Shown here one piece after another: positions 36,755 to 37,253 of a DNA stretch of 64,000 bases (the first letter of the stretch is position 1; each line of letters begins with the position of its first letter). The stretch comes from Escherichia coli. Its GTDB lineage: Bacteria; Pseudomonadota; Gammaproteobacteria; Enterobacterales; Enterobacteriaceae. Position numbers and translations under genes: made by a program. Where the stretch lies: NCBI RefSeq assembly GCF_048403405.1, contig NZ_CP183129.1. The stretch is one strand, 5' to 3'. Below the pieces are notes generated by a model. That model worked only from the letters and a program-made list of their open reading frames with translations. It searched no databases and had not been told where the DNA came from.

Positions 36755-37253
36755 ATGAATATGAAGACCATTGAAGATGTATTATTCACCTGCTTTCATA
36801 TACCTACAGCGCAGAAAAACAATTAACCCGGGCACTGGCAAAACTCGCTAGAGCAACATCAAACGAAAAATTAAGTCAGGCTTTTCATGCGCACCTCGAG
36901 GAAACTCATGGACAGATTGAACGAATTGATCAAGTTGTGGAGTCCGAATCGAACCTGAAAATTAAGCGCATGAAATGTGTGGCAATGGAAGGTCTCATTG
37001 AAGAAGCTAATGAGGTCATCGAAAGCACCGAGAAAAACGAAGTGCGTGATGCCGCACTGATTGCCGCTGCACAGAAAGTCGAGCACTATGAGATCGCCAG
37101 TTACGGGACCTAGCAACGCTGGCTGAACAATTAGGTTATCGTAAAGCAGCGAAGCTTCTGAAAGAAACCCTGGAAGAAGAAAAGGCCACCGACATCAAAT
37201 TGACTGATCTGGCACTTAATAACGTAAATAAGAAAGCCGAAAATAAAGCCTGA
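36755..37253 (+). pseudogene. yciF: YciF (DUF892 ferritin-like stress protein) disrupted by two 1-nt deletions
   Basis: ATG at 36755 gives MNMKTIEDV then stop after 22 codons; YciF-like sequence continues in two other frames (shifts near 36780-36785 and 37108-37113); no intact ORF of 60 aa or more on this strand. Confidence 0.8.

Follow-up and report, generated by a model that had tools for sequence, protein, structure and literature searches.

The yciGFE(katN) operon of Escherichia coli is reportedly sigma-S-dependent, having been described as such in earlier work on its regulation. In strain K-12, the source of the YciF structure PDB 2gs4, the three genes occupy the chromosomal position trpA - yciG - yciF - yciE - ompW. 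An altered form of the second gene is also on record: a frameshifted yciF is annotated by PGAP in MS 69-1, ST2747, 4621, TUM14771, TUM1226, GN02461, and OX030728. For the Salmonella orthologue of YciF, three residues of the DUF892 domain, namely Q54, E113, and E143 (the bridging residue), have been shown to be needed for iron binding and ferroxidase activity (bioRxiv 10.1101/2023.01.20.524870).

The stretch of E. coli DNA analyzed here (64,000 nucleotides, hereafter the window) has yciG, yciF, and yciE in the same order and the same position as K-12, between trpA and ompW. Compared with K-12 YciF, the window gene loses its reading frame at codon 10 and is shifted a second time at codon 120, so that no DUF892 domain is expected to be made from it. 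Its 499 nt are identical to those of the annotated frameshifted gene, with no difference inside yciF; unlike the strains that carry that annotation, the window strain has a prophage in ompW and an indel in a C-run of topA. We conclude with high confidence that yciF in the window is a real, vertically inherited pseudogene, carried by a lineage that has E. coli 042 and Ecol_316 among its relatives.

The lesions were placed by alignment and three-frame translation with the 501-nt yciF of E. coli 042 as the intact reference (Table 1). A preliminary description of this DNA had claimed two single-base deletions in yciF, with shift sites at 36780-36785 and 37108-37113 and with YciF sequence carried on in the two other frames. 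Reading of the sequence, three-frame translation, and the alignment to 042 yciF bear out all of this, and each deletion falls inside the interval proposed for it. Alignment to yciF of related strains, which the same description had put forward as a check, shows that the window gene lacks one nucleotide at each of two sites when the intact 042 gene is the reference. YciF residues 1-9 are encoded at 36755-36781 in the first of the three frames, residues 11-119 at 36784-37110 in the second, and residues 121-166 with the stop at 37113-37253 in the third, where the normal stop codon is 37251-37253. The frame that opens with the ATG at 36755 comprises 23 sense codons (MNMKTIEDVLFTCFHIPTAQKNN), nine of them native and 14 encoding out-of-frame residues; the earlier count of 22 codons before the stop has to be corrected accordingly. 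The second deletion creates a further stop, a TAG, in the frame that is read after the first. No uninterrupted reading frame of about 166 codons with the di-iron ligands is thus found: the first shift comes at codon 10, the stop at codon 24, and the second shift at codon 120.

Table 1. Features of the yciGFE locus and its borders, in window coordinates
Feature	Position	Strand	Description
trpA	35303-36109		upstream of yciG
yciG	36490-36669	+	intact, 59 aa; first gene of the yciGFE operon; from the ORF list
upstream marker 36741T	36741	+	C in intact alleles; 41 nt upstream of deletion 1; linked only to deletion 1
yciF pseudogene	36755-37253	+	499 nt vs 501 nt intact; repaired by 2 bases it gives a 166-aa DUF892/YciF protein
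deletion 1	36782-36783	+	TTT -> TT at codon 10 (Phe); frame shift; older lesion
D16Y missense	36799	+	GAT -> TAT in the repaired frame; private to the double-deletion allele
premature TAA	36824-36826	+	codon 24 of the ATG frame
deletion 2	37111 (new TAG 37111-37113)	+	TT -> T at codon 120 (Leu); younger lesion
yciE	37299-37805	+	intact, 168 aa; DUF892 paralogue; own AGAGGA ribosome-binding site upstream
ompW 3' remnant	37865-37983	-	cut off by prophage insertion; right-hand boundary of the conserved locus

The identity of the damaged gene is clear from the repaired translation, which matches Pfam PF05974 with 171 bits (gathering cut-off 23.7) over profile positions 1-158 of 159. Aligned to E. 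coli YciF (PDB 2gs4_A), it extends over residues 1-166 with E = 4e-97 and 2 mismatches (164/166 identical). Q54, E113, and E143 are all located downstream of codon 10, from which we infer that the activity known from the Salmonella orthologue must be lost. Judged from the sequence, the sole product predicted for yciF is a peptide of 23 residues that would contain neither the ferritin-like four-helix bundle nor any di-iron ligand, and YciF protein is expected to be absent from this strain. The early stop could also have a polar effect on yciE.

Is it possible that a functional YciF is nevertheless produced from this gene? Two programmed -1 ribosomal frameshifts would yield the full-length protein, as a -1 slip would formally correct each of the deletions, and the separate segments could conceivably be made as functional split polypeptides. 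Beyond the formal correction, nothing specific speaks for such a scheme, and we consider it the least probable of the explanations weighed here, bordering on the negligible. Neither site has an in-frame slippery heptamer of the form X XXY YYZ (the sequences are GTA TTA TTC at the first site and GGG ACC TAG at the second), and two successive low-efficiency events would leave a negligible amount of product. The shifted form is also rare and derived, occurring in 13 of ~4,485 genomes rather than being conserved among orthologues, and RefSeq calls the MS 69-1 gene a frameshifted pseudogene, not a programmed frameshift. As for split polypeptides, the only ORF of the middle segment is a GTG-initiated one of 58 aa (36937-37113), and in the last segment no start codon opens an ORF of 20 aa or more.

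The preliminary description had left two alternatives for the lesions, namely decay of one member of yciGFE or sequencing-type indels. That both deletions are sequencing or assembly errors in a gene that is truly intact would fit with their location in short T runs and with the presence of a probable homopolymer error in the same assembly (topA, 17509). However, the identical 499-nt allele, within a segment that is 100% identical over all of 36400-37900, is found in nine RefSeq complete E. coli records: ST2747 (three records), TUM14771, GN02461, 4621, MS 69-1, TUM1226, and OX030728. These nine complete genomes, which have the two deletions and D16Y in common, come from different submitters and strains, and one of them has a divergent trp background. 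Moreover, the T runs comprise no more than 3 and 2 bases, the full TTT is present at the first of them in ~4,470 further genomes that share the flanking sequence, and the nested distribution of the deletions together with the linked SNP 36741T constitutes a phylogenetic signal, unlike random error. We therefore reject sequencing-type indels for yciF, with a very small residual probability that they account for both lesions, and favor decay, which is supported by the exact allele in nine independent genomes, by the nesting of the deletions (13 vs 9 records), and by the label "yciF, frameshifted" under which MS 69-1 and ST2747 carry the identical sequence in RefSeq. Put in general terms, yciF has a lesion that is disabling relative to intact orthologues and that recurs in separately assembled genomes of different strains, as expected of an inherited pseudogene; an indel private to one assembly and set in a long homopolymer, the mark of a sequencing artifact, is not what is seen in 9 and 13 records with runs of 3 and 2 T. 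A 32-mer spanning deletion 2 had no match in the metagenome collection, and the support comes from isolate genomes only.

The records that share the allele differ in how far their identity to the window extends. MS 69-1 differs from the window at only 2 positions over 500-37983. ST2747 has no differences at 36110-37805 (yciG-yciF-yciE, ~1.7 kb), whereas just upstream, across trpL-trpA of the 6.7-kb trp operon, there are 118 substitutions. Being identical at yciGFE but divergent in trp, ST2747 places the allele in at least two chromosomal backgrounds, and the switch from divergence to identity at 36110 indicates a recombination breakpoint close to the spacer between trpA and yciG.

The topA gene of the same window provides a contrast. 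It is split by the loss of 1 nt from a C-run (C7 -> C6, 17503-17509), giving two ORFs on the minus strand, 17484-19307 and 16669-17508, and this loss at 17509 is one of the 2 differences from MS 69-1 over 500-37983. No close relative has the shorter C-run; full-length matches to it were found in 3 unrelated assemblies of ~5,420, and ~5,410 others read the longer run. Such a pattern is typical of homopolymer errors, and the C-run was probably misread in the source assembly; if it was not, topoisomerase I, the product of this housekeeping gene, would be truncated. Suspicion of indel errors in this assembly is thus reasonable for topA but is not applicable to yciF. The main value of the comparison lies in quality control, in that a real frameshift (shared, nested, and marker-linked) can be told apart from a probable assembly error.

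The order in which the two deletions arose can be read from their distribution. With an exact 54-nt probe, the context of deletion 1 was found in 13 of 4,485 records, comprising the nine double-deletion records and VCSW7, VCSW5, 18KM2445, and 2012C-4221. An exact 59-nt probe placed the context of deletion 2 in nine records, every one of which also has deletion 1. The nesting of deletion 2 in 9 of the 13 deletion-1 records indicates that deletion 1 came first and that deletion 2 and D16Y followed later in one sub-lineage. The single-deletion genes of VCSW7/VCSW5, 18KM2445, and 2012C-4221 have deletion 1 and 36741T in common with the window but have neither deletion 2 nor D16Y. Further damage varies among them: 18KM2445 has an extra nonsense change at K136 (AAA -> TAA) and 2012C-4221 has the extra replacements Q60R, D98G, and A121S, whereas VCSW7 shows no added nonsense or missense damage.

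A single origin of deletion 1 is indicated by the upstream marker. Position 36741 is T in all deletion-1 alleles examined and C in intact alleles in the SNP table, and a synthetic haplotype that combined 36741T with intact TTT was not matched exactly over its full length in any of ~4,550 genomes. As 36741T was never seen with intact TTT, the data point to one origin. Recurrent, independent origin was also considered, the deletion-1 alleles differing from one another by 6-13 nt, mostly synonymous; it is less likely than a single origin combined with recombination, because 36741T occurs only with deletion 1.

The divergence among deletion-1 alleles has a further bearing on their history. Their pN/pS is 0.03-0.19, that is, the nucleotide differences are mostly synonymous. 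Values this low are unlike long neutral decay; to account for them, either these alleles must have recombined with intact ones or deletion 1 must be fairly recent. In VCSW7, five private changes are clustered at 37139-37200, which suggests import by recombination from intact alleles, and recombination is probably responsible for the low pN/pS of the deletion-1 alleles as a group. Together, the low pN/pS and the VCSW7 cluster would obscure the age of deletion 1 in these data.

Loss of yciGFE functions is not confined to this lineage. The trpA-yciGFE-ompW segment, starting with trpA, was used as a query with a coverage cut-off of 80%. At least 80% of the segment was covered in 4,716 of the 5,421 complete genomes matching the query, and ~700 of these 5,421 trpA-bearing genomes (~13%) were below the cut-off. 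The eight genomes sampled from the bottom of the coverage ranking all matched trpA only. In the O25b:H4-ST131 strain 2017_APHA (NZ_CP051615.1, locus 5001-6000), the three genes yciG, yciF, and yciE are missing, and immediately next to trpA come an ompW remnant and prophage genes. For YciF the expected end result is the same there as here, no protein, but in ST131 three genes are physically gone, whereas in the window yciF alone has been hit by point indels. Smaller independent lesions were found as well: in Z1323HEC0462, an A-run at codons 21-22 of yciF has gained one base, and 'clone D i2' has lost yciG together with part of the 5' end of yciF through a deletion. As yciGFE is missing wholly or for the most part from ~13% of the complete genomes, including ST131, the locus is evidently dispensable, and its repeated loss fits with weak or conditional selection.

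Repeated loss could also be taken as a sign of adaptation, with the combination of YciG and YciE without YciF being favored in this host-associated lineage. Independent losses have occurred in the deletion-1 lineage, in Z1323HEC0462, in 'clone D i2' (yciG), and in ST131 and others of the ~13% class, and yciG and yciE are intact in every deletion-1 carrier examined. Against positive selection, the allele is rare (13 of ~4,500 genomes), its carriers are of mixed source (human, dog, and soil), and a stress gene that is conditionally dispensable would be just as likely to be lost time and again. We regard selected loss of YciF as improbable on this evidence. A broader version, in which certain host-associated lineages of E. 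coli have repeatedly been selected for loss of YciF ferroxidase while retaining YciG and YciE, in parallel with the yciGFE deletion of ST131, seems marginally less probable again. Were selected loss nevertheless true, YciF would carry a cost in some niche, for instance if it alters how iron or oxidative stress is handled in stationary phase. Loss of yciF was more likely neutral than selected, and none of the observations requires selection.

With neutral loss as the preferred reading, the following course can be proposed. The TTT run at codon 10 would have lost one base in an ancestor, most likely by replication slippage, and this ancestor would have been a member of the lineage to which 042 and Ecol_316 are related. 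Selection on the gene may then have been relaxed, after which the sub-lineage of the window would have lost the second T at codon 120 and gained D16Y. Throughout, yciG and yciE would have stayed intact while yciF decayed.

The two-hit frameshift pseudogene is neither novel nor surprising. Its pseudogene state is already known in the sense that it is annotated in public records, and it is a case of ordinary lineage-specific gene decay; a search of the literature on yciF as a pseudogene returned nothing on this allele. As a small biological data point, the locus adds to the view that the sigma-S-dependent yciGFE operon is dispensable and is repeatedly lost in natural E. coli, whether by point indels, as here, or by complete deletion, as in ST131 and others. 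Strains of this lineage, for example the widely distributed HMP strain MS 69-1, are predicted to be natural yciF nulls, which could be relevant to work on bile, iron, and oxidative stress.

The genes that flank yciF were described as intact at the outset, and both are indeed full ORFs whose products match RefSeq proteins. From the RefSeq annotation of identical DNA, the yciG product is WP_000807651.1, identical to that of K-12, and the yciE product is WP_001079500.1, the same as in strain 042. YciE matches Pfam PF05974 with 173 bits.

Identity of the window to MS 69-1 ends at 37983. Past the ompW remnant is a lambdoid prophage with tail-fibre, tail-fibre-assembly, and SAM-methyltransferase genes, and its DNA matches prophage tail-fibre regions. 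In the closest relatives of the window (MS 69-1, 4621, and TUM14771 are closest), ompW is intact and the prophage is absent. The same prophage junction as in the window is present in 042, ML35, and VR50, and an ompW remnant of the same type is annotated in 042.

Two further observations concern the region upstream. An IS200C-type element is located at 19896-20613, between yciN and sohB, and MS 69-1 has a second copy near oppF. The yciQ gene (25885-27789, minus strand) is labeled 'frameshifted' in the RefSeq annotation of MS 69-1, although the sequence is identical to that of the window here. In the window, yciQ is one continuous ORF of 634 aa, so the problem, if there is any, would be near the N-terminus or in the choice of start codon.
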